A DNA stretch of 64,000 nucleotides from Halobacteroidaceae bacterium (GTDB taxonomy: Bacteria > Bacillota > Halanaerobiia > B1SED10-174). A program made the translations under genes and the position numbers. Shown here piece after piece: positions 3,324 through 58,993 of this stretch. The stretch spans positions 1,439-65,438 of the forward strand of contig PWFS01000001.1 in the NCBI GenBank assembly GCA_003554145.1, read 5' to 3'. Below the pieces are notes generated by a model that saw only the letters and a program-made list of their open reading frames with translations, did not search any database and was not told the origin of the DNA. Positions within the stretch are counted from its first letter, which is position 1; every line of letters begins with the position of its first letter.

Positions 3324-3654
3324 ACAATGCTCGGGGATAACACTTTTTGATTACCATTAAAAGGGAAGGGTCATTTAACCCTATATATATGGTGGGGGAG
3401 CAGTTGTTGTGGGGTTGATATAAGTACTGTTTAAAGCTGGGTAGCCCTGGATGCAGCAACAAAAATTAAGAAACTCGTTTTTGGAGTTAAAAAGATCATC
3501 TTTGCCAAAAATTTAATATCGGGATGCTGCGCCAATTATTTCCTGTTGGGGCTTGTTTTTTTGCCCCGGGCCCATAAACCCTAATTCGGGCTCAGCCTTC
3601 GAGGTGAAAGGGTAACCCCCAGATTATTTTGGAAAGCCACTATTGCTCTATAAA

Positions 3655-4090
3655 AGCTTTTAAGACGGTCAAAATCAAAGCCTGTTCTGATCCGGGAACT
3701 TTTTTTTCTGTAGCCCTGCTTTGGGAGAACTGGGAACCGAGGTTGAATGGTCCCGGGTTCCGGTTAACGCTCAGGATATTTCCCCGAGGGAGTTCGAGTT
3801 TGTGAACCTCAGGCCCGGATGCTATTCCGCGTGGAGCCCCAGGACGAGGAGGATCTTCTGAAAGTTATCATAAAAGCCGGAGTGCCTGCAGAAGCAATCG
3901 GGTAGAGTACTGCAGAAACTAAAGAAGGGTTAAAATATGAAGGGGAAAAATTTCTAAAATACCCAATTAGCCTCCTCCGGAAATGGGGGAGGAGCCAGGG
4001 TGAAGGAGAGAAAAGATTAGATTAGCCCACCTGGGGGGCATAATTTCGAGGCCATCCTTTTTCATTTTTGGCCTTCCTGAGGATAATATG
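3655..4090 (+). pseudogene. Degenerate duplicate (gene remnant) of the 3' end of the PurM-like gene 1135..2286; disrupted by frameshifts and an in-frame stop
   Basis: Nucleotide similarity to 1918-2372 with indels; the six-frame ORF track gives no long +-strand ORF here and reading the aligned copy-2 sequence shows an in-frame stop (gggTAGagtactgcagaa) plus indels; its 3' end overlaps the last codons of the intact CNNM gene. Confidence 0.6.
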
Positions 4091-5126: not shown

Positions 5127-6252
5127 TAGAGCCCTCCTGTTTTTGTTTTTCAGCTCTTAATCTCCAGGAAAGTTCAACAGGAAAATACTACTTTTTTAAA
5201 AAATTTCCAGTCCACTGGCTCAAAGGATCAAAGCTGGAGTTTTCCTCAGAGAGGTTTCTGGATATTGCTATGTTGGGGGCTGGGAAAAGGTTTTTGCGGG
5301 TAGAAAAGTGTAAAAAATATTTTACATCAGGGGTGAAATTTAAAAAGAAAAGGAAGGGTGTGCAAAATAATGGACAGGTGAAGGTGGGGGTTGTCTAAAG
5401 TTCAACACAAAGAGAAAATTCCTGATACACAGGCGTTTAACTTATACCCTGCTCTTCCTGCATTCTTCTGTAGTTCGGGGAGAACATAGTACAGTACAGA
5501 AAAGGAAAAAATATTGTAATTAAGAAACGAAATAGGAGAGGGGTAATTAAAGGTTAAACTCCTGGCAGAGGCCCATTACAGGCAATTTTATCCCCGGAGA
5601 GATGTTTAAATCTGTCTGTTTTTTTTTCTGTTTCTGAATGGGACTGGAGCAAAATTATTTCCAGAGAAAAATTTTTTAAGCAAAAAAAAGAATAAAAACC
5701 CCCCATTTTTGGGCCACCTTTATTTTGGGTGCTTGATTATTATTGGGAAAAAAATTGTAGGGTTGATAGGCCTGTTTTGGTACATTTATTGCTTTATAAT
5801 TGGGCAGGAAAATAAAACAATGAAAGGGAAGGTGTTTTAATTTTTTTTCAGTGGACCTGGAATAAGGAGATAAAGGTCCTGAAAAAGGCTTTTCTTGGGG
5901 AAAGGGGTAACCCGGGGGAGTTTACACTTGTTTTTTTGGCGTTTTTAAATTTTTTACCCTGGGGTCAATGGTCATTTTTTTCAGAACACCAGTTGATAGC
6001 AGAAAAACCGGGGTAATAAAATCCCAATGTGGGGGAAAAGCCATTTCATTTAAACTGGCAGAATGCCCCAAACCAGAACCGGAACCAATCAGGGGAAGAA
6101 GGTCCTGGGGATGCAAGAAGATTTTGGGAATAGTTTTTCAGGCCCAGAGGAATTTTAGTTCAAAACAATTTACCCGGAAAATCCCTTTCTGATCCAGAAA
6201 AAAGAAAAGCTATAATAATATAGCCAAAAATTTACAGGAAAGAGGTGTTTTG

Positions 6253-50488: not shown

Positions 50489-51514
50489 GTGGCAAAAGAT
50501 GTGCAGAACGAGAAGAAATCCAAAGAACTACTCTTAGAGGTCAAAAACCTAAAAACCTACTTTCACACCGAGGACGGCGTGGTTAAAGCTGTTGATGGTG
50601 TATCCTTTGAAATTTACAAAGGAGAGGTATTAGGTATTGTTGGAGAATCTGGTTGTGGCAAAAGTGTAACCTCGCTGTCTATTATGCGCCTGGTCCAGGA
50701 ACCCCCTGGGAAAATCTCTGCCGACACACTTACTTTTGAAGGAGCGGAAATCCTGAAAAAGAGTGAATCTGCTATGAGGAGGATCAGGGGGAATGATATC
50801 TCCATGATCTTCCAGGAGCCGATGACCTCGCTGAACCCGGTGTATACTGTTGGAAATCAGATTTCCGAAGCCATTATTCTCCACCAGAAATTGTCCAAGG
50901 ACAAGGCTATGAAAAATGCGGTCGAAATGCTGCGCAAGGTTGGTATTCCGCTTCCCGAGAAAAGGGTGCATGAATACCCCCACCAGCTTTCCGGTGGTAT
51001 GCGCCAGCGGGTAATGATCGCCATGGCACTGTCCTGTAACCCTAAACTCTTGATTGCCGACGAACCAACCACCGCACTGGATGTTACCATCCAGGCCCAG
51101 ATCCTGGAGTTAATGGGTTCTTTGCAGCGGGATTTCGATGCAGCCATTATGTTGATCACTCATGACCTGGGAGTAGTTGCTGAGACCGCCGACCGAGTAG
51201 TGGTTATGTATGCGGGTAAGGTAGTGGAATATAGTGATGTGAATACGATTTTCCACAATCCTCGCCACCCCTATACCTGGGGTCTTCTGCAGTCCATCCC
51301 GCGTCTTGATGAAGAGCGGGAGCGACTCCTGGTAATTGAAGGTGTGGTTCCCAATCCGCTATTCCTGCCGGATGGTTGCAAATTCCACCCTCGCTGTCGT
51401 TTTGCTTCTGAGAGATGTTCAGAAGAAGAACCCGAACTGGAAAATATCAATCAAGATCATCAAGTTCGCTGCTGGCATTATGATAAAGTTGCCGAAGCGG
51501 ATAAAAAGGTTTAA
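50489..51514 (+). CDS. oppD: Oligopeptide ABC transporter ATP-binding protein
   Basis: GESGCGKS Walker [10 protein letters not shown]-terminal oligopeptide-ABC Cys-containing extension. Confidence 0.9.
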
Positions 51515-51530
51515 TTGGAGGTGAATTCTG

Positions 51531-52529
51531 GTGGCTAACGAAGAAATCCTACTAGAAGTCAATAATCTCAAGAAATACTTTCCCATAAAGGGTGGAGTTT
51601 TCGGCCGGGTTGTTGGCAATGTTAAAGCTGTAGACGGAGTTTCCTTTTATGTAAATAAAGGGGAGACTGTGGGACTTGTTGGTGAATCCGGTTGTGGCAA
51701 GACCACGACCGGGAAAGTTGTTCTCCGCCTGGAAGAAGCAACAGAAGGCGAAATTCTTTTTGAGGGTCGCAATGTCCTGGAACTGGGGCGGGAAGAAATG
51801 CGCAGCCTGCGCCGGGAAATGCAGATAATTTTCCAGGACCCCTATAGTTCACTGAACCCCCGGATGACCGTTGGCAATATTATCGGGGAAGCCCTGGAAA
51901 TTCACGGTCTGGCCCGGGGTAAGGCCAAGGAAAAGAAAGTTAAAGAACTTCTGGAAGTTGTTGGGCTTACCGCCCATCACATGCGCCGCTATCCTCACGA
52001 GTTTAGCGGTGGGCAGCGTCAGCGGATCGGTGTAGCCCGAGCCCTGGCCGTGGATCCCAAATTGATTGTATGTGATGAACCTGTTTCAGCCCTTGACGTT
52101 TCTATTCAGGCCCAGGTTATTAACCTGATGGAGGATTTGCAGAAGGAATTTGACCTGACCTATCTATTTATTGCCCACGACTTGAGTGTGGTCAAGCATA
52201 TCAGTGACCGGATTGCAGTTATGTATCTGGGGAAAATTGTTGAACTGGCTGATAAAGCGGCACTGTTTAAAAAACCCATTCATCCCTATACCCAGGCTCT
52301 TCTCTCCGCCATTCCCATTCCTGATCCAGCAATTAAGAGGGAGAAGATAATTCTGAAGGGTGATGTTCCCAGCCCAGTTAATCCTCCCTCGGGTTGCCGT
52401 TTTCACACCCGTTGCCCCTACGTTATGGATATTTGCAAAACAGAGGAACCCGAATTTGTGGACTGGGGAGATCGGCACTTTGCTGCCTGTCACCTGGAAG
52501 AAGGTGCTCCCGAAAGAGAAGTTCTTTAA
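51531..52529 (+). CDS. oppF: Oligopeptide ABC transporter ATP-binding protein
   Basis: [18 protein letters not shown]-terminal CRFHTRCP motif. Confidence 0.9.
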
Positions 52530-52552
52530 ACCAAACTCAAATCAGGATAGAA

Positions 52553-52581
52553 AAGGAGAGGCCAGCCCTCTCCTTTTTCTT
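52553..52581 (+). terminator. Rho-independent terminator of opp operon (GGAGAGG-ccagc-CCTCTCC + TTTTTCTT)
   Basis: 7-bp GC stem plus T-run 24 nt after oppF stop. Confidence 0.6.
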
Positions 52582-52891
52582 ATGGGTGTGCCCGACATAT
52601 CTATTGAGGATCTCGCCTTTTATGGCAGATTAGGATGATGAAAAGGGCAAGATTGCCCAGGGGCTGGAGGCGCTGTAGGGAGCAGTCTGACGAACTGTAG
52701 AGTAGAAGAGGAGCACTGGGAAGGGAGCCCAGTGTGGGAATTTTGGCCTAATGGATGAAACTTATTCGGGAGCAGCTTATGCGGCTCGTAGGCAAGTTAT
52801 AGGAGAGGGGAAGTCCTCGTTTAGCTCGGGGCTTCTCCACTCAATTTTTTTCGGGTGCTGGCAGGAAATGGCTCCAGAAAAATTATATTAC

Positions 52892-52920
52892 TTGACCCTG
52901 ACTCCCTGCACTGGTATTAT
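52892..52920 (+). promoter_or_regulatory. Candidate sigma70 promoter TTGACC-17-TATTAT upstream of small acidic membrane protein
   Basis: TTGACC 52892-52897, 17-nt spacer, TATTAT 52915-52920. Confidence 0.4.
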
Positions 52921-53026
52921 TTAAGTGAATAGGGATTGTTGTAATATTAATCTGTTGATAATCAGGGAAATGGTCCCGCCCGGATAGTTTGCTCGGAATA
53001 TAGCTTCTCGGAGAGGGGGGCGGATA

Positions 53027-53212
53027 ATGTACGAACCAGATAGAGACCGGGAAAAAGAGGAAAGAGAAGGAAGGGAAGAAGAAGAGGTTAAACCAACCTG
53101 GAAGGATTTTCTGGCTATGACCATTGCTGCTTATGAAATTATCCTGGTCCCGATGCTAATAATTTTCGCCGTTCTGGGAGGTGTAATATTCCTTTTTTAC
53201 CTTATATTTTAA
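53027..53212 (+). CDS. Small tail-anchored membrane protein with poly-acidic/charged N-terminus (61 aa)
   Basis: GAGAGGGGGG RBS 6 nt before ATG; EPDRDREKEEREGREEEEVK then single C-terminal TM helix; followed by hairpin terminator. Confidence 0.45.
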   Translation: MYEPDRDREKEEREGREEEEVKPTWKDFLAMTIAAYEIILVPMLIIFAVLGGVIFLFYLIF

Positions 53213-53227
53213 TAAGAATAGCAAAAA

Positions 53228-53258
53228 CCCCCGCCTTGCCGGGGGTTTTCACATATGC
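53228..53258 (+). terminator. Terminator ACCCCCG-ccttgc-CGGGGGT + TTTC
   Basis: GC-rich hairpin directly after 53027..53212 stop. Confidence 0.45.
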
Positions 53259-54062
53259 TGCTGATGGTCGGTTTAATGTGATTGATTTATGGGAAATTAA
53301 TAGTAATATTGACTCATTAAAATGAGAGTTTTTGCAATTTTGAAATTATATTGGTTTTCCATAACGCATATTTAGATCATAAACCCTGCAAATCCGGAAA
53401 AAAGCTCAGTTATTATTTCCAGGCTATTAACCTCAAATTTAATCAGTAGTTTTAGCTCTGACAATTAATTTCTTTTTTCAATTTCCCGGAATTTGCAATG
53501 GATTACGTTAATAATTTAGAGGAAAAGATTAAGACGATAATAAATTCATTATTTTGTTGTAGAGAGTTTAGTAGAAGAAGGAAATAGTTGAATAATTAAT
53601 AAACTGCTGGGTTTGAAGTCCCATGCAGAACTCTCTTTTTGCTTTAACAGGTCTTGATTACAACCCTCGGGCGAGTATTAAAAATTAGCAGAAAAAATTT
53701 AAAAATTCGCAAAAATTTTAAGAATTTTGGCTTATAATATAGTAGAGGGGGTGATTATTTTCAATTACGGTAAAATGAAATAACTTTTTCAAGTTTAAGG
53801 GAAATTGTTCTTGCAATATTTAAACTTAAATGGTTTTTTGCGGTTTTTAGGGCAATTCGGAGGGTAGCTAAACATTGAGAAGAATAGTTTAATCAGCAGC
53901 TAATTATTTTGGTCAGACCTGTAGTTTATTGGCGTTTAAAACCGACGAGGAATTAAAATGGGGCTTAAAGTTTGAAGGGCTCATAGGTTACAAGGGGCAG
54001 CGCTCTTGCCGTTATTAGGTTCTGGAAAGGAGTTCAAAATTTAAAAAGATGGGAGATAGGGC

Positions 54063-54599
54063 ATGTCAGAAAATATTATCCTGTTACTTGTTGCGGTTGT
54101 AGTTGGAGGTGGTTTAATTGCTGGTATCTTATATTTTATTCTCCGTCACATGCGGGGCTCAATTAAATTATCCCTACCCCAGACAGCATTTAACCCGGGA
54201 AATAAGATTAGCGGTGAGTTTGATCTTCTCGCAAAAAAACCCATCCAGGGAAATAAACTTATCGTTAGGTTGATTGGGCAACAGGTCACCAGGCACCACC
54301 AGAATGGGAAGAGCAGGACGCGCTCCCAGGAGATTTACAGGGATGAAGTTCTTGTTGAAGAGGCTAAGGACTATCCTGCCGGATATACTGGTAAGTATAG
54401 CTTTGAAATTAACACCCCGAATACAAATGAAACAGAATTTCTAAATTCTCCTCTTGGTCAAACTCTAAATGCTGCTGTTCGATTGCTCAGTAACCGAAAC
54501 ACACGCCTCCAATGGAGGGTAGAAGCCAGGCTGGATGCCAAAGGTATTGATCTGGTAGCAGCAAAAAAAATTACCCTAAATACCAAATTTATGGGGTAA
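54063..54599 (+). CDS. Hypothetical N-terminally membrane-anchored protein
   Basis: 178-aa ORF after GGGAGATAGGG RBS; N-terminal TM IILLLVAVVVGGGLIAGILYFIL; sits at edge of AT-rich island. Confidence 0.45.
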   Translation: MSENIILLLVAVVVGGGLIAGILYFILRHMRGSIKLSLPQTAFNPGNKISGEFDLLAKKPIQGNKLIVRLIGQQVTRHHQNGKSRTRSQEIYRDEVLVEEAKDYPAGYTGKYSFEINTPNTNETEFLNSPLGQTLNAAVRLLSNRNTRLQWRVEARLDAKGIDLVAAKKITLNTKFMG

Positions 54600-55023
54600 T
54601 TTTATGAGTTCCACCGTATTGGAGGTTTGTTGAACACACGCCAGATAAGGCAAAACCTGATAAAGTCAAAGGTCTCAGTTGGAATTGGACAATTAGCGTA
54701 ATCATGCAGTTGCAGACAATAACCCGGGAGCTGTTTAACTTCTTATTATTTTATCAATTCTATAGATATATAAGGGAATATGGGGCATAAGTTTCCGACT
54801 ACTACCAATTAAGCCCTTATACAGGCTTATTACCCCAATGGTGGACAATGAAAATTAACCAAACCACCTTGCTTTGAGCTCCTATGTTTGTGGGGAGCTT
54901 TTTTCATTTTTGAAAGGAGCCTGCAGAAAACTTCCAGTAACAGTTTGAGTTAAGGATCAATGTCGAAAAAATGAAACCGCAACCACTCATCATTAGGAGA
55001 GTTTGCGGCAAAAAAATCAAGAA

Positions 55024-55110
55024 TGGTGCCGAGAGCGGGATTCGAACCCGCACAGGCTCACGCCCACAGCGCCCTCAACGCTGCGTGTCTGCCAATTCCA
55101 CCATCTCGGC
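55024..55110 (-). tRNA. tRNA-Leu (anticodon GAG), class II with long variable arm
   Basis: Reverse complement GCCGAGATGGTGGAATTGGCAGACACGCAGCGTTGAGGGCGCTGTGGGCGTGAGCCTGTGCGGGTTCGAATCCCGCTCTCGGCACCA: 7-bp acceptor stem, anticodon stem CAGCG/CGCTG with loop TTGAGGG (anticodon GAG), T-loop GGTTCGAATCC, encoded CCA. Confidence 0.85.
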
Positions 55111-55427
55111 TCTTTTAATATTATAACACATCCAAAAAACCTGTCAATAATTCAACAGATGAATTGCCGGCACTATTCCAGGCAGAAAACATTTTGGAAG
55201 GGGAAAGTCAGTACAGAGAATCTCCGAAATTTTTGTTAGTTTTTTCTTTTCTGCTTCAGGAAAAATAAAAATCTAATAGAGGTTGGAACGGGGAGGGATC
55301 AGGGAAAAGGAGGGCCATATAATAAAAAACAGGAATAGGAAGCATTACTGAGTAAAAAGGAAAAAAAGACCGTTAAATCGGGGTTTTTTTGCAGGGGAAA
55401 AGGTATGTTTGCCGAATTTAAACGTTA

Positions 55428-56915
55428 ATGTTTTTTGCAGGGGGGATAATTTTGGAAAAATGGCGTGATGTACTGGCCCTGCTTGTAATTCTGGGCCTGG
55501 TGGCAGCCTCCCTGGGGGCCATATTTTTCCTGCAAAGGGGAATTGATGTGCAGGTTTTTACTCCGGAAAATCGTATTGTGGCCCGAAATATAGGGGCCAC
55601 TGGTGAAGTGCATTTTTCGGGGGGGGAGAGAGTGTATTCTCCTTTTGCGGGTATAATTGCCGAAGTCCAGGTAAAAAAAGGAGAACTGGTGGAAAAGGGC
55701 GATCCCCTTTTTATTTATGATACCGAGGAATGGGAAAGAGAATTAATGCAGTTGAAACTGCGCTTCCAGCAGCTAAAAGAGGAAGAATCTTTTAGGGAAA
55801 ATCAAATTCGAAGAGAACTTGCTGACCTGGAAGCCAGAAAAATGGACTGGCTTTTGCGGGAAGAAGAACTTCATTATTCTCAGGATATAAGAAAATGGGA
55901 AATGGAATGTTTGATCCAGGATCTGGAAAGGGAATTAGATCAGGCGAGAAAAGATCTGGCTGATCTGGAGGATTTTTATCATTCAGAATATGTTACCTGG
56001 CGAGAAGTTCAAAAAGCACGGGATCAAGTTGCAAACCTGGACCATGAACTGAAAAGGGCCAGGTTGGACCAGAAACAGGTCCTGGAGGTTGAATTCCCCC
56101 TGCAGGAAAAGATTTTAAACAGAGAAGGTTTGCGGATCAGTAACAAAATAGAAGAAACCCGCAAAAAACTGGAAGTTTTCCTGGAAAAAAAAGGCCTGAA
56201 TTCTGCCTACCAGGAAATGGAACTAATTCAGGGCAGCATTGAACAACTGGAACTGAGGCTGGCGAATAAGGAAGTGATGGCTCCAGAAGAGGGGCTGGTT
56301 AACAGCCTGATGCTGGAACAGGGCCAGAGGGTTAATCAAGGATTGCTGGCCCTAGAAATTAATGATCCTGCTGCAATTGAGATTGTTCTGAAGGTCAACT
56401 CCCGGGATTTTCACCGACTGGAAAAGGGGCAGGAGGTGGAGGTTTTCCTGGAGGACATTCATCCTCCCCTGAGTGGAAAAATTGAATGGATAGCACCCTG
56501 GGCTGAAGAACAATTGGTAGAAACCGGGGTTGTTTTGACGGACCGGCGAGATCTTCTCCGGCCGGGAATGGTCGTAGAAGCACAGATTAATCTGACCGGA
56601 CGGCGCCTTCTGATACTTCCCCCCCAGGCAGTTTTTGAGCGTGAACTTCAAGATACCAGGATGATAATCAGGGAGGGAGAGGATACTGCCTATTATGTAT
56701 TTCTGGTGGACAAGGATTCCCGGGAGGTTTATCCCAGTCGGGTGCGTATCGGACAGGAAACTCAGGATTATATTGAAATTGTTTCCGGCCTCAGTGCTTC
56801 CAGCAATGTAGTTATCGGGGATACCGAGGCTCTTAACAGGTTGGAAGGCTACCTGACCGAGTGGGAACAGAGGTTGATTGAAGAAATCAGGGAAAATTTT
56901 ACTGATAATAATTAG
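55428..56915 (+). CDS. HlyD-family membrane-fusion / periplasmic adaptor protein (start may be TTG 55452)
   Basis: N-terminal TM, long coiled-coil heptad region (ELMQLKLRFQQLKEEE..., DLADLEDF...), C-terminal beta-barrel/lipoyl-like segments. Confidence 0.7.
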   Translation: MFFAGGIILEKWRDVLALLVILGLVAASLGAIFFLQRGIDVQVFTPENRIVARNIGATGEVHFSGGERVYSPFAGIIAEVQVKKGELVEKGDPLFIYDTEEWERELMQLKLRFQQLKEEESFRENQIRRELADLEARKMDWLLREEELHYSQDIRKWEMECLIQDLERELDQARKDLADLEDFYHSEYVTWREVQKARDQVANLDHELKRARLDQKQVLEVEFPLQEKILNREGLRISNKIEETRKKLEVFLEKKGLNSAYQEMELIQGSIEQLELRLANKEVMAPEEGLVNSLMLEQGQRVNQGLLALEINDPAAIEIVLKVNSRDFHRLEKGQEVEVFLEDIHPPLSGKIEWIAPWAEEQLVETGVVLTDRRDLLRPGMVVEAQINLTGRRLLILPPQAVFERELQDTRMIIREGEDTAYYVFLVDKDSREVYPSRVRIGQETQDYIEIVSGLSASSNVVIGDTEALNRLEGYLTEWEQRLIEEIRENFTDNN

Positions 56916-56926
56916 GAGCTGTTTTT

Positions 56927-58993
56927 ATGGTTCGCTTTTTCTCGCGCAGGATTCTAACCGTATTATTGCTGATCTGGCTTCTAACTGCAATAATTTTTGC
57001 CCTGATTGCTGCTTCTCCCGAAGGGTTGGAGAGAGTTCTTCCTGTTAGTGGATCCGGCCCCTTTGAGCTGGCCCGAGAAAGGAGTATCAATAACCTGGAT
57101 TCTTCTCCAGCCAGGGAGTATTTTGTCTGGATTGGGGAAATGTTATCCGGGAATCTGGGAACTGTTGGAGGTACTGGCTCAACCGGGTTCCCCCTGATCA
57201 CCATTCTGGGACAGCGCCTGGCTGTTAGTTTTATACTGATTGGAACCTCACTCATTGTCGCGGTGTCAGCCGGGCTGATAATGGGGGTTTACTCTGCCCT
57301 CCGTCCCCACAGTATCCTGAGCAGATTATTGAATTACCTGGGTATACTGGGAGTTTCTATTCCTGATTTTGCCCTGGGAATTCTGTTATTGATAGTATTT
57401 GCTGTTCATCTGCAGTGGCTTCCTTCCGGTGGTCAGCAGGGCCTCCTATTTGATGAAACAGGCCTGAGTATGATCCTTGACCGTTTGCGCCATTTAATTC
57501 TACCGGTGATAACCCTTGCCGCTGGTTATATTGCCATTTTTTCTGAGCATGTAAAAACAGCCTTATCCCTCACCGTCCGGGAAGACTATATTCGTACCGC
57601 TCGTTCCAAGGGACTTTCCGAAAAAGTGGTTATTCTCAAGCATGCCCTGCGCAACAGCATGATTCCCATTCTGGCTTCCCTTTTTTCTTCCCTACCCTTT
57701 TTTCTGGGGGGAATAGTGGTGGTAGAACACCTCTTTTCCTGGCCCGGTTTGGGCTCTTTCATTTATCGTAATGTCCTGGACCGAACCGGGGATTTTTACG
57801 TGGTATTAATTATAACCGGGCTGATATCCTTTATTACCCTGATGGGGAGTCTCCTGGCTGACTTTTTGTATGCCCTGGTGGATCCCCGGGTGCGCAATCC
57901 GGTGGAAAAAACGGATAAAGGAATTCCCCTACTAAATATTTTTATTGTTGCAGGAACTGGCCTGTTCGCAGTTTTCTTTTACTTCTGGATTCTGGAACCC
58001 GCTTACAGCTTCCTGGGGTCAGGAATGGTTATTGGGATGGCCTTTGCTGGCTTTCTGACCCTTATTGGCATCTGGGTATTGCCCCGCCGAAAAGAAAAAA
58101 AACAACCCAACTCTCCAGGAGGATCCTTGACGACCTGGTCTCAGGCGTTACCTGTTTTTAACTGGAGATTAATTATTGGTTTTTTCCGGGGCCTGGCTCG
58201 TCCGGGAGTAATTCTGGGAATTATTATCCTGATCAGTATAATGGGAGGTTATTTCTATACTCAGAGCGAGGGTTTAATGCGGGTGAGTGATATGCCTGTA
58301 GACCTGGAAAATCGTCTTGCGCCCCCTTCCCTGGAAAATATTTTAGGAACTGATCGAATTGGGAGGCCAGTTTTAACTGCGGTTTTAATTAATGCTGGTA
58401 ATACTATGAGCCTGGTTTTTTATATAACACTTATTGGTCTTCTGGGAGGAACTGTTCTGGGGGTCCTTTCCGGTTATCTGCAGGGTCTTTTTGACCGCTC
58501 CCTGATGGCCATATTTGATCTGCTGTCCTCAATCCCCAGTTTTTTCTTTGTGTTTTTGATTATGGGGGCCATTGGTCAGGAGGAGAACATAATAATAATG
58601 GCTGCTGCGGTGGTAGGTTTGATAGAGCTAACCCGGGTTATCCGGGCCCGGATGCTTTCCATTAAAGAATTCCAGTTTGTGGAGGCTGCCCGCTCCCTGG
58701 GTAATTCTGACCTGCAGATTCTGGCCCGCCATCTTCTTCGCAATGTTTTTCCCCTGATCTGGGGACAGGGTTTGATTCTTTTTGGCCGTAATATGGTTTT
58801 ATTATCTTCTCTGGGGTATTTGCGGATAATACCTTCTACTACCTGGGGTTCAATGGCCGGTGATGCCGTGCGGTCTTCCCTTTATGATTGGTGGGTCAGC
58901 CTGGGGCCCATCATTATGATTATCCTGGTAGTTTTTGCCGTAAATATTATCGGGAAGGGGGTGCTGGGAAACATTGATCCCCTTAAGAAATAA
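56927..58993 (+). CDS. Fused OppB-like + OppC-like ABC permease (single 688-aa polypeptide); no ATPase or SBP in operon
   Basis: First half contains DYIRTARSKGLSEKVVILKHALRN (OppB/DppB signature); second half contains EAARSLGNSDLQIL (OppC/DppC signature). Confidence 0.75.
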   Translation: MVRFFSRRILTVLLLIWLLTAIIFALIAASPEGLERVLPVSGSGPFELARERSINNLDSSPAREYFVWIGEMLSGNLGTVGGTGSTGFPLITILGQRLAVSFILIGTSLIVAVSAGLIMGVYSALRPHSILSRLLNYLGILGVSIPDFALGILLLIVFAVHLQWLPSGGQQGLLFDETGLSMILDRLRHLILPVITLAAGYIAIFSEHVKTALSLTVREDYIRTARSKGLSEKVVILKHALRNSMIPILASLFSSLPFFLGGIVVVEHLFSWPGLGSFIYRNVLDRTGDFYVVLIITGLISFITLMGSLLADFLYALVDPRVRNPVEKTDKGIPLLNIFIVAGTGLFAVFFYFWILEPAYSFLGSGMVIGMAFAGFLTLIGIWVLPRRKEKKQPNSPGGSLTTWSQALPVFNWRLIIGFFRGLARPGVILGIIILISIMGGYFYTQSEGLMRVSDMPVDLENRLAPPSLENILGTDRIGRPVLTAVLINAGNTMSLVFYITLIGLLGGTVLGVLSGYLQGLFDRSLMAIFDLLSSIPSFFFVFLIMGAIGQEENIIIMAAAVVGLIELTRVIRARMLSIKEFQFVEAARSLGNSDLQILARHLLRNVFPLIWGQGLILFGRNMVLLSSLGYLRIIPSTTWGSMAGDAVRSSLYDWWVSLGPIIMIILVVFAVNIIGKGVLGNIDPLKK

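Follow-up and report, generated by a model that had tools for sequence, protein, structure and literature searches.

The window, a stretch of 64,000 nucleotides from a Halobacteroidaceae bacterium, contains a short and compositionally unusual interval between its opp operon and an HlyD gene. The opp operon closes on the forward strand with a terminator hairpin (52551-52577) consisting of a perfect 11-nt inverted repeat and a T-run. On the same strand lies the gene for a 61-aa small membrane protein (53027-53212), which possesses a sigma-70-like promoter (52892-52920; TTGACC-17-TATTAT, TG-extended, 10/12) and the ribosome-binding site GGAGAGGGGGG. Its product combines a charged N-terminus with a KPxWKDFxAxTIAAY motif and one transmembrane helix. 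A bidirectional intrinsic terminator follows at 53221-53252 (13-bp stem, -18.8 kcal/mol, z = -3.8). Beyond it are an AT-rich non-coding stretch (53253-54062), a forward-strand gene encoding a protein of 178 aa (54063-54599), a non-coding tail (54600-55023) and, on the reverse strand, tRNA-Leu(GAG) (55024-55110; identified by ARAGORN, Rfam tRNA score 53 bits). The tRNA is served by a perfect TTGACA-16-TATAAT promoter on the reverse strand (55120-55147; 12/12 with TG). A previous description of this region made from the letters of the DNA, hereafter the sequence-only reading, had recognized a 61-aa ORF with its own promoter, ribosome-binding site and terminator, and a 178-aa ORF followed by tRNA-Leu; both assignments were confirmed. 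It had also regarded the two proteins as orphans, which they are not. The 61-aa protein is one of a family of small membrane proteins for which 29 cluster representatives were found at E <= 1e-3, and homologues of the 178-aa protein make up more than 215 clusters, with identities of 53-91%.

The stretch at 53253-54062 is the AT maximum of the whole window. Its GC content of ~0.31 lies 4.7 sd under the mean over all 800-bp windows (0.47, sd 0.033) and is also below that of ORF-free gaps (mean 0.41). The lowest-GC 800-bp window of the 64 kb was found at 53131-53930 (GC 0.3125), and 300-bp windows gave values of 0.29-0.33 within 53250-53999 and of 0.43-0.55 on either flank. Inspection of 53250-54062 in six frames revealed just three ORFs of 30-32 aa and none longer than 32 aa. 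This carries little weight alone, because stop codons are frequent at 31% GC. The AT-rich, ORF-poor character proposed for this DNA was therefore confirmed, as was its strongly non-uniform GC content. Pfam searches of the stretch in six frames detected no pseudogene or integrase remnant, and a search for copies of it in the rest of the window and in 115 loci found them only in the same species and in the lineage of the related locus L014. Candidate identities as an oriC, iterons, a CRISPR leader or an integron attC site were dropped, since repeat scans provided no supporting repeats or genes and the cumulative GC skew showed no switch.

The locus was compared with soda-lake MAGs of four sister Halobacteroidaceae lineages (L009/L018, L010/L016, L017 and L114+L019), retrieved by a contig profile search with an HlyD alignment; a query with a single HlyD protein found none. 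In all four lineages the gene order oppD-oppF, small membrane protein, bidirectional terminator, tRNA-Leu(GAG) and HlyD was kept. The opp terminator hairpin and the tRNA promoter were likewise kept in relatives, an equivalent TTGACC...TTATTAT stands ahead of the small gene in L009 and L010, and an orthologous tRNA-Leu was present in L009, L010, L017, L018 and L114. Syntenic orthologues of the 61-aa protein, 55-58 aa in length and 81-83% identical, were found in L009, L010, L017 and L114. The sequence-only reading had counted the 61-aa gene as part of an island; all relatives have it in the corresponding place (83% amino acid identity), which refutes this and assigns it to the conserved backbone. 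The terminator at 53221-53252 is also backbone. It aligns with the terminators of the relatives, which act on the small gene as well as on the tRNA.

In each of the four sister lineages, only 3-6 nt separate the terminator tail from the tRNA 3' end, whereas the window carries 1771 extra bases exactly at this terminator/tRNA junction. Global alignment with L009 and L010 showed the block at window positions 53217-53249 continuing directly into position 55024, and the same empty site was present in L017, L018 and L114. The additional DNA, which we term the islet, thus spans 53253-55023 (1.77 kb) and ends directly at the 3' end of tRNA-Leu(GAG) at 55024. An island had been proposed at 53200-55420. 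Extra DNA is indeed present there and the region is not syntenic, but its true extent is narrower, with the tRNA and its promoter belonging to the backbone. HlyD identity was 64-85% among the empty-site lineages and 50% between the window and each of them. Since the window lineage is equidistant from all empty-site lineages, parsimony alone cannot separate an insertion from a single loss.

At its distal edge (53256-53275, forward strand) the islet repeats the tRNA-Leu 3' end in direct orientation and degenerate form, putatively as a decayed att remnant. An ungapped comparison of TGCTGCTGATGGTCGGTTTA with TGGTGCCGAGAGCGGGATTC gave 12 matches in 20 positions, in register with the empty-site junction CATA|TGGTGCC. 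The binomial probability of such a match is 5e-4 and the empirical value 8e-4 (54/63919 window positions score as high), both to be read in the knowledge that the position was recognized after the fact. Local alignment of both islet ends for a longer att repeat yielded nothing significant. At the predicted distal junction, the search for the kind of repeat that flanks tRNA-linked elements yielded this short degenerate copy, a candidate att site.

The 178-aa gene is the sole ORF in the islet exceeding 38 aa; no integrase, excisionase or other mobility gene was detected there. With dN/dS values of 0.12 and 0.08, this cargo gene is under purifying selection and functional, and its GC3 of 0.391 is the second lowest among 52 ORFs. 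The family to which it belongs spans several phyla, including Verrucomicrobiota, Desulfobulbaceae, Marinimicrobia and others, in gene contexts that are unrelated: across 36 loci, no conserved neighbours were found beyond closely related genomes. Linkage to a tRNA and a long AT-rich leader were found only at the window locus. In most other genomes the family gene has a host-like GC content and appears resident, which counts against reading it as part of a mobile remnant. PADLOC returned no match for the 178-aa and 61-aa proteins, PHROGs gave only non-significant matches for them (E 0.017 and 0.27), and a scan of IMG/VR contigs with the alignment of the 178-aa family revealed no member. Phage and plasmid collections searched with the islet by blastn (distant mode) produced no match, and searches of phage, plasmid, viral and metagenome data brought up no intact progenitor element.

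The islet ends in a tail of 0.42 kb, in which Pfam searches of four of the six frames gave no match. It contains two terminator-like hairpins. One, at 54876-54900 on the forward strand, is positioned to serve the 178-aa gene; the other, a hairpin plus T-run spanning ~54969-55009 on the reverse strand, could terminate tRNA-Leu. Both are weak folds (z = -1.5 and -1.7). The tail is 97.6% identical in L014 and L015 and is in part common to a further locus, L013.

L014 and L015 come from independent samples and are 99.6% identical to each other. Between the window and these loci, positions 53790-55110 are 98-100% identical, with 98.9% identity at the third codon positions of the 178-aa gene, compared with 90.4% (third positions 85%) for the adjacent core gene HlyD. 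This excess over HlyD indicates recent lateral exchange of the right part of the islet. Identity to L014 changed stepwise, from 82-85% at 53490-53690 to 91% at 53690-53790 and 96-100% at 53790-54062; the left AT-rich part (to ~53790), at 82-85% and with indels, has diverged at about the neutral rate. For 53790-54062, function could be a further cause of the high identity, besides recent exchange.

Homology between L014 and the window begins at L014 position 1656, corresponding to window position 53490. The preceding L014 sequence (1-1655) encodes a 406-aa protein with DEDD_Tnp_IS110 and Transposase_20 domains, placing an IS110-family insertion point at 53485-53490 of the window, from which the IS itself is absent. 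Three assemblies also break in the AT-rich part, and together with the L014 element these breaks show that the region tolerates insertions. The IS110-family element lies within the AT-rich stretch of L014, has no sequence similarity to the AT-rich DNA of the window and has no copy in the window; it is a secondary insertion and not the origin of the islet. The best explanation of these patterns is that the islet is still exchanged among related strains by homologous recombination and serves as a target for IS insertion.

Taken together, we consider it probable that a mobile element once integrated at the 3' end of tRNA-Leu(GAG) in the ancestor of this lineage and that 53253-55023 is its worn-down remainder; the whole would then most likely be a decayed tRNA-linked genomic islet of an ordinary kind. 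The decayed, tRNA-adjacent element envisaged by the sequence-only reading is thereby supported in substance and corrected in several details. In common with tRNA-linked genomic islands, the islet is inserted exactly at a tRNA 3' end, is absent from related genomes, deviates towards AT and carries a patchily distributed accessory gene. The distal tRNA-end repeat of such islands may have its counterpart here in the degenerate 12/20 copy spotted post hoc. Unlike them, the islet is only 1.77 kb long, lacks an integrase or mobility gene and is almost half non-coding. We infer both an integrase-mediated origin and a direction of change by insertion, not loss. Accounts of this kind would begin with integration at the tRNA 3' end, probably by site-specific recombination, in the ancestor of the window's Halobacteroidaceae lineage. 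Integration would have restored an intact tRNA at 55024-55110 and pushed the original tRNA 3' fragment to the far edge beside the old bidirectional terminator, where it would have decayed to the 12/20 match at 53256-53275. The integrase and the greater part of the cargo would have been lost in later deletions, leaving ~0.8 kb of non-coding, AT-rich DNA, a single intact cargo gene under selection, and the 0.42-kb tail, which may now supply terminator-like hairpins. The main value of the result is one of annotation: it gives exact borders to a small islet, probably acquired horizontally, beside the tRNA-Leu(GAG) gene of an uncultured Halobacteroidaceae lineage from soda lakes.

Two other routes to the same arrangement were considered. 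The 1.77 kb might be ancestral and have been lost by one precise deletion before the four sister lineages diverged from one another, with no insertion at all. The HlyD identities make the window lineage an outgroup to the empty-site lineages, a single event fits the pattern in either direction, and no mobility gene is present. We nevertheless judge this quite unlikely: the deletion would have had to leave the terminator fused precisely at base one of the tRNA 3' end, the distal junction bears an in-register tRNA-end-like repeat, and the segment concerned is a compositional outlier that moves between strains and whose cargo family is patchy and elsewhere without tRNA linkage. Arrival without an integrase, by illegitimate recombination or by a capture event involving an IS110-family element like the one in L014, is improbable. 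The lack of an integrase and the presence of an IS110-family element inside the islet of a relative would fit it, and elements of this family insert site-specifically without long repeats. Yet the L014 IS shares no sequence with the AT-rich DNA and is set in from the edge of the islet by 235 nt. The insertion point of the islet coincides with a tRNA 3' end, the canonical site, and its opposite border bears a tRNA-like repeat.

Within the preferred reading of a decayed remnant, the AT-rich stretch is best read as mostly functionless filler, that is, decaying foreign DNA rather than a hidden RNA gene, with its last ~270 bp (~53790-54062) presumably supplying the 178-aa gene with its promoter and 5' UTR. 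The sequence-only reading had offered a structured non-coding RNA as an alternative, and an sRNA, riboswitch-like leader or other RNA gene would accord with several features of the stretch: it is free of ORFs, its GC skew is strongly positive (0.31-0.39 across 53550-54150), it contains promoter-like sites (53764 to 53736 on the minus strand, 10/12), a hairpin lies at 53604-53628, and the short element TTAAAGTTTGAAGGGCTCATAGGTT (~53962-53989) is common to the upstream region of L013. However, the Rfam 15 covariance models matched only the tRNA in 51000-57000 at E <= 1, with nothing inside 53253-55023, and found nothing beyond the tRNA in L013 and L014 at the same threshold. Sliding RNA-fold z-scores were unremarkable on both strands (between -2.3 and +1.3 in the AT-rich part); in the scan of 53200-55120 nothing stood out except the terminator and the 178-aa gene's 3' end. 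The hairpin has a z-score of -0.9 and has lost one pair in L014, 53490-53690 has diverged at a neutral rate with indels, the stretch tolerates an IS in L014, and the upstream gaps of other family members measure only 30-300 nt and hold no common motif. An RNA gene is accordingly very improbable. That the stretch is instead functional cis-regulatory DNA of the 178-aa gene, as a long curved promoter or a target of silencing by nucleoid proteins, we regard as unlikely, although phased A-tracts occur at 53676-53727 with a spacing of ~10-11 nt, 53790-54062 is 96-100% identical where HlyD is 90% identical, and AT-rich horizontally acquired DNA is the classical substrate of xenogeneic silencers. Against this, the left 500 bp evolves neutrally and is broken by the IS in L014, and no convincing sigma-70 promoter was found on the forward strand upstream of the gene. 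Moreover, the high identity extends equally over the synonymous sites of the 178-aa gene and the tail, which argues for recent exchange and not constraint.

The AlphaFold2 model of the 178-aa protein (pLDDT 87.5) comprises a transmembrane helix (residues 2-31) followed by one arrestin-like beta-sandwich lobe (residues 32-172). The predicted sandwich resembles those of Spo0M, the N-lobes of alpha-arrestins and Vps26. Foldseek matched the model to the N-lobe of ARRDC3 (4r7x), the N-domain of TXNIP (4gej) and Spo0M (5cl2), with top PDB matches at E 7e-10 to 2e-9, probability 1.0 and TM-scores of 0.48-0.63. Sequence identity to these arrestin-fold structures (Bacillus subtilis Spo0M, ARRDC3 and TXNIP) is only 14-17%. 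Spo0M is known to represent the arrestin clan in prokaryotes (PMC2515105). At the level of Pfam profiles, Arrestin_C matched the protein at E 1e-4 with 23.0 bits, under its gathering cut-off of 27.7, Arrestin_N scored 16.7 bits against a cut-off of 24.9, and Spo0M (PF07070) gave no match. The model thus displays the arrestin-type beta-sandwich fold without a gathering-level Pfam score, and canonical arrestins are two-lobed whereas this protein is single-lobed with an N-terminal transmembrane anchor.

The protein is predicted to be anchored in the membrane by its N-terminal helix with the arrestin-like domain in the cytoplasm, the latter because a conserved RxMRGSIK motif directly follows the helix (positive-inside rule). 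It is probably a membrane-proximal binding or adaptor module. A more far-reaching proposal is that the family constitutes widely conserved bacterial membrane-tethered single-lobe arrestins acting as cytoplasmic adaptors for membrane proteins, a prokaryotic counterpart of the alpha-arrestins, and that the 1.8-kb leader, gene and tail form a minimal cassette moved into tRNA-Leu(GAG) by an integrase acting in trans, and not a dead remnant; to this combined view we assign little probability. The cargo family is of modest wider value, as a well-conserved, membrane-anchored, arrestin-fold group present in multiple phyla for which no curated Pfam or NCBIfam model scores above threshold. Some of its members do carry a precomputed PF02752 match.

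The locus was compared with its counterparts in four sister lineages (L009/L018; L010/L016, with L011 and L012 of the same lineage; L017; and L114 with L019). All four share one arrangement: oppD and oppF come first, then a 55-58-aa orthologue of the window's 61-aa gene, a bidirectional terminator and a minus-strand tRNA-Leu(GAG), and after these HlyD, a 688-aa permease and a 561-aa protein. In each, the terminator T-tail lies 3-6 nt from the tRNA 3' end (...GGGGGTTTTTCATA/TGGTGCCGAGAGC...). In a global alignment, 53217-53249 pairs with the sister terminator and the next aligned block begins at 55024. The window therefore contains 1771 extra bases (53253-55023, here the islet), located at the precise point where, in the sister lineages, the terminator adjoins the tRNA 3' end. 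The HlyD proteins of the sister lineages are 64-85% identical among themselves and 50% identical to that of the window, which has this one group of relatives only (50% aa identity). In a scan of species-representative genomes these relatives are labelled Halobacteroidaceae or Bacillota MAGs from soda-lake sediments, an origin in agreement with a MAG study (PMC6146748). Contigs 99.9% identical to the window are found in Kulunda soda-lake sediment metagenomes and in MAG GCA_003550965.1.

The features described in the sequence-only reading were all present: a 61-aa ORF (53027-53212) with its own ribosome-binding site, a promoter-like site (52892-52920) and a strong hairpin terminator (53221-53252, z = -3.8); a 178-aa ORF (54063-54599); and tRNA-Leu(GAG) (55024-55110, minus strand), whose promoter (55147-55120, minus strand) is a perfect match. 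The 61-aa gene, its terminator, the tRNA and the tRNA promoter constitute conserved backbone; the 61-aa gene, previously counted as part of the island, falls outside it. Nor is its product an orphan, as had been proposed: an exhaustive HMMER search returned 29 cluster representatives at E <= 1e-3 sharing a KPxWKDFxAxTIAAY motif and a TM helix, and the syntenic orthologues are 81-83% identical. The tRNA itself is nearly identical between the window and the sister lineages outside its variable arm (55060-55075), which reads GGCTCACGCC in the window vs GGCAATTGCC, GGCGAATTGCC, GGCGATTGCC and GGCGAATGCC. Further downstream, the 688-aa protein (window 56927-58993; L009 11476-13542) has two BPD_transp_1 permease domains in a fused OppB/OppC-like arrangement; its position directly after an HlyD-type adaptor is an unusual pairing, kept in all relatives.

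The composition of the islet's left part, non-coding DNA at 53253-54062, bears out the AT-rich island proposed beside the tRNA. In 300-bp windows, GC is 0.29-0.33 at 53250-54000 vs 0.44-0.55 before and ~0.42 after; in 800-bp windows, 53131-53930 is the minimum of the whole 64 kb (0.3125; mean 0.47, sd 0.033; 4.7 sd below), far under the average for all ORF-free gaps (0.41) and under the other long gap at 5127-6249 (0.378). That second ORF-free gap spans 1123 bp and holds the second most AT-rich 800-bp window. As claimed, no credible ORF occurs in the stretch (three in 53250-54062, each 30-32 aa), a scarcity that is weak evidence alone because it is expected for DNA of 31% GC. The alternative raised earlier, that the stretch encodes a structured non-coding RNA, is not supported: 53253-54062 gave no Rfam match at E <= 1, and fold z-scores on both strands ranged from -2.3 to +1.3. 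Six-frame Pfam searches detected no gene remnant there, and no copies were found elsewhere in the window or in fetched loci outside its own species and a close relative. Additionally, the islet DNA matched nothing in phage and plasmid collections. In the window's species, three independent assemblies (two JGI metagenomes, one NCBI MAG) stop within the stretch, at 53307, 53433 and 53449, which suggests that AT-rich DNA is poorly covered there or that strains differ at this point. The last ~270 bp of the stretch may plausibly be regulatory. The 14-mer GGGGTGATTATTTT occurs at 53745-53758 (-315 from the 178-aa gene) and at 413-428 of L005, the locus of a 73%-identical homologue (-100 from that gene); its flanks are otherwise unrelated, and chance may account for it.

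We consider a decayed tRNA-linked genomic islet to be the best-supported reading, in keeping with the integrated element originally suggested: the site is empty in all four sister lineages, the composition is deviant and a degenerate in-register repeat lies at the distal junction. An element would have integrated at the tRNA-Leu(GAG) 3' end and then lost its integrase and most cargo; what remains would be AT-rich filler, a single selected cargo gene and a short tail. Neither an integrase nor any other mobility gene is present in 53253-55023. The non-coding tail (54600-55023) contains two weak, terminator-like hairpins: one would serve the 178-aa gene, and the other lies on the minus strand immediately past the tRNA. 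An element integrating at a tRNA 3' end would bring its own intact 3' end, leaving the displaced piece of the original at the far border to decay. In a multiple alignment of junctions, the post-terminator window sequence CACATA/TGCTGCTGATGGTCGGTTT is in register with the empty-site CATA/TGGTGCCGAGAGCGGGATT and matches the tRNA 3' end at 12/20 positions (binomial probability 5e-4 at this composition; 54 of 63919 window positions score as high). The direct repeat sought at the tRNA 3' end was recovered only as this putative degenerate copy, with no longer repeat between the islet ends. Such a match is what tRNA 3'-end integration would predict, and counts as suggestive, not conclusive.

The main uncertainty concerns whether the segment was gained or lost. 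Because the window lineage is the outgroup to all empty-site lineages, one loss in their ancestry would fit the tree equally well. Insertion is favoured by four observations: the junction falls exactly at the tRNA end, the repeat is in register, the islet's composition deviates and the segment moves between strains.

This mobility is seen in L014, a related locus from another sample that carries the islet and is confirmed at 99.6% identity by L015 from a second sample. The L014 HlyD gene is 90.4% identical to that of the window (third codon positions, 85%). Identity is 82-85% with indels at 53490-53690, 91% at 53690-53790, 96-100% at 53790-54590, 99.3% in the 178-aa gene (third codon positions, 98.9%), 97.6% in the tail, 100% in the tRNA and 92.8% at 55111-55451. 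The gradient shows that the rightmost 1.3 kb has recently passed between lineages, and that the left AT-rich part drifts at about the neutral rate. Homology starts at 53490; upstream, L014 carries an IS110-family element (L014 1-1655) encoding a 406-aa DEDD_Tnp_IS110 and Transposase_20 transposase, inserted at a point corresponding to window ~53485-53490, inside the AT-rich stretch, and having no sequence in common with the window. The element has ~230 nt of non-coding DNA 5' and ~200 nt 3' of the transposase gene and gave no Rfam match; in the IS110 family, non-coding ends of this kind are reported to encode guide (bridge/seek) RNAs. The more distant L013 (84% DNA identity) has only 54014-54736 and a 28-nt upstream element in common with the window.

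The 178-aa protein, the sole islet gene product, had also been called an orphan, yet it has >215 homologous clusters at 53-91% identity, the named hosts being Verrucomicrobiota, Opitutales, Desulfobulbus, Desulforhopalus and Marinimicrobia (mean column identity 62% among 39 aligned members). The gene is under purifying selection, since dN/dS is 0.12 in comparison with a homologue at 84% identity and 0.08 with another at 71%. Its confident AlphaFold model (pLDDT 87.5) comprises one beta-sandwich, preceded by a TM helix (residues 2-31); the sandwich resembles the ARRDC3 N-lobe, the TXNIP N-domain and B. subtilis Spo0M (Foldseek E 7e-10 to 2e-9); Pfam gave no match above threshold, with Arrestin_C and Arrestin_N sub-threshold. 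A conserved basic R-x-M-R-G-S-I-K motif directly after the helix suggests, by the positive-inside rule, that the domain is cytoplasmic. The gene's GC is 0.425 and its GC3 of 0.391 the second lowest of 52 window ORFs. Across 63 other metagenome loci, homologue GC tracks the host and gaps of 30-300 nt precede the gene; none has a tRNA close by, and neighbours are not conserved beyond close relatives. Linkage to a tRNA and a long AT-rich leader are therefore features of the window's lineage alone. One copy in Desulfobulbus alkaliphilus sits among IS200, toxin-antitoxin and DDE transposase genes. In kind the islet is ordinary, and its borders are now precisely placed; the wider appeal of the locus is limited to this uncharacterised family of single-lobe, membrane-anchored proteins with an arrestin fold.

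Two other stretches of the window were noted. Between the opp terminator and the 61-aa gene promoter, ~310 bp (52580-52890) absent from L009 and L010 may be a second small lineage-specific insertion; it is G-rich on the plus strand (GC skew about +0.26), has fold z-scores of only -1.0 and -1.3, and contains a 57-aa ORF (52751-52924) without Pfam match. Elsewhere, 3647-3953, within a 738-bp ORF-free gap (3324-4061), copies 1909-2232, the 3' part of ORF 1135-2286, at 83-91% identity and is apparently a gene fragment that was duplicated, or a pseudogene.
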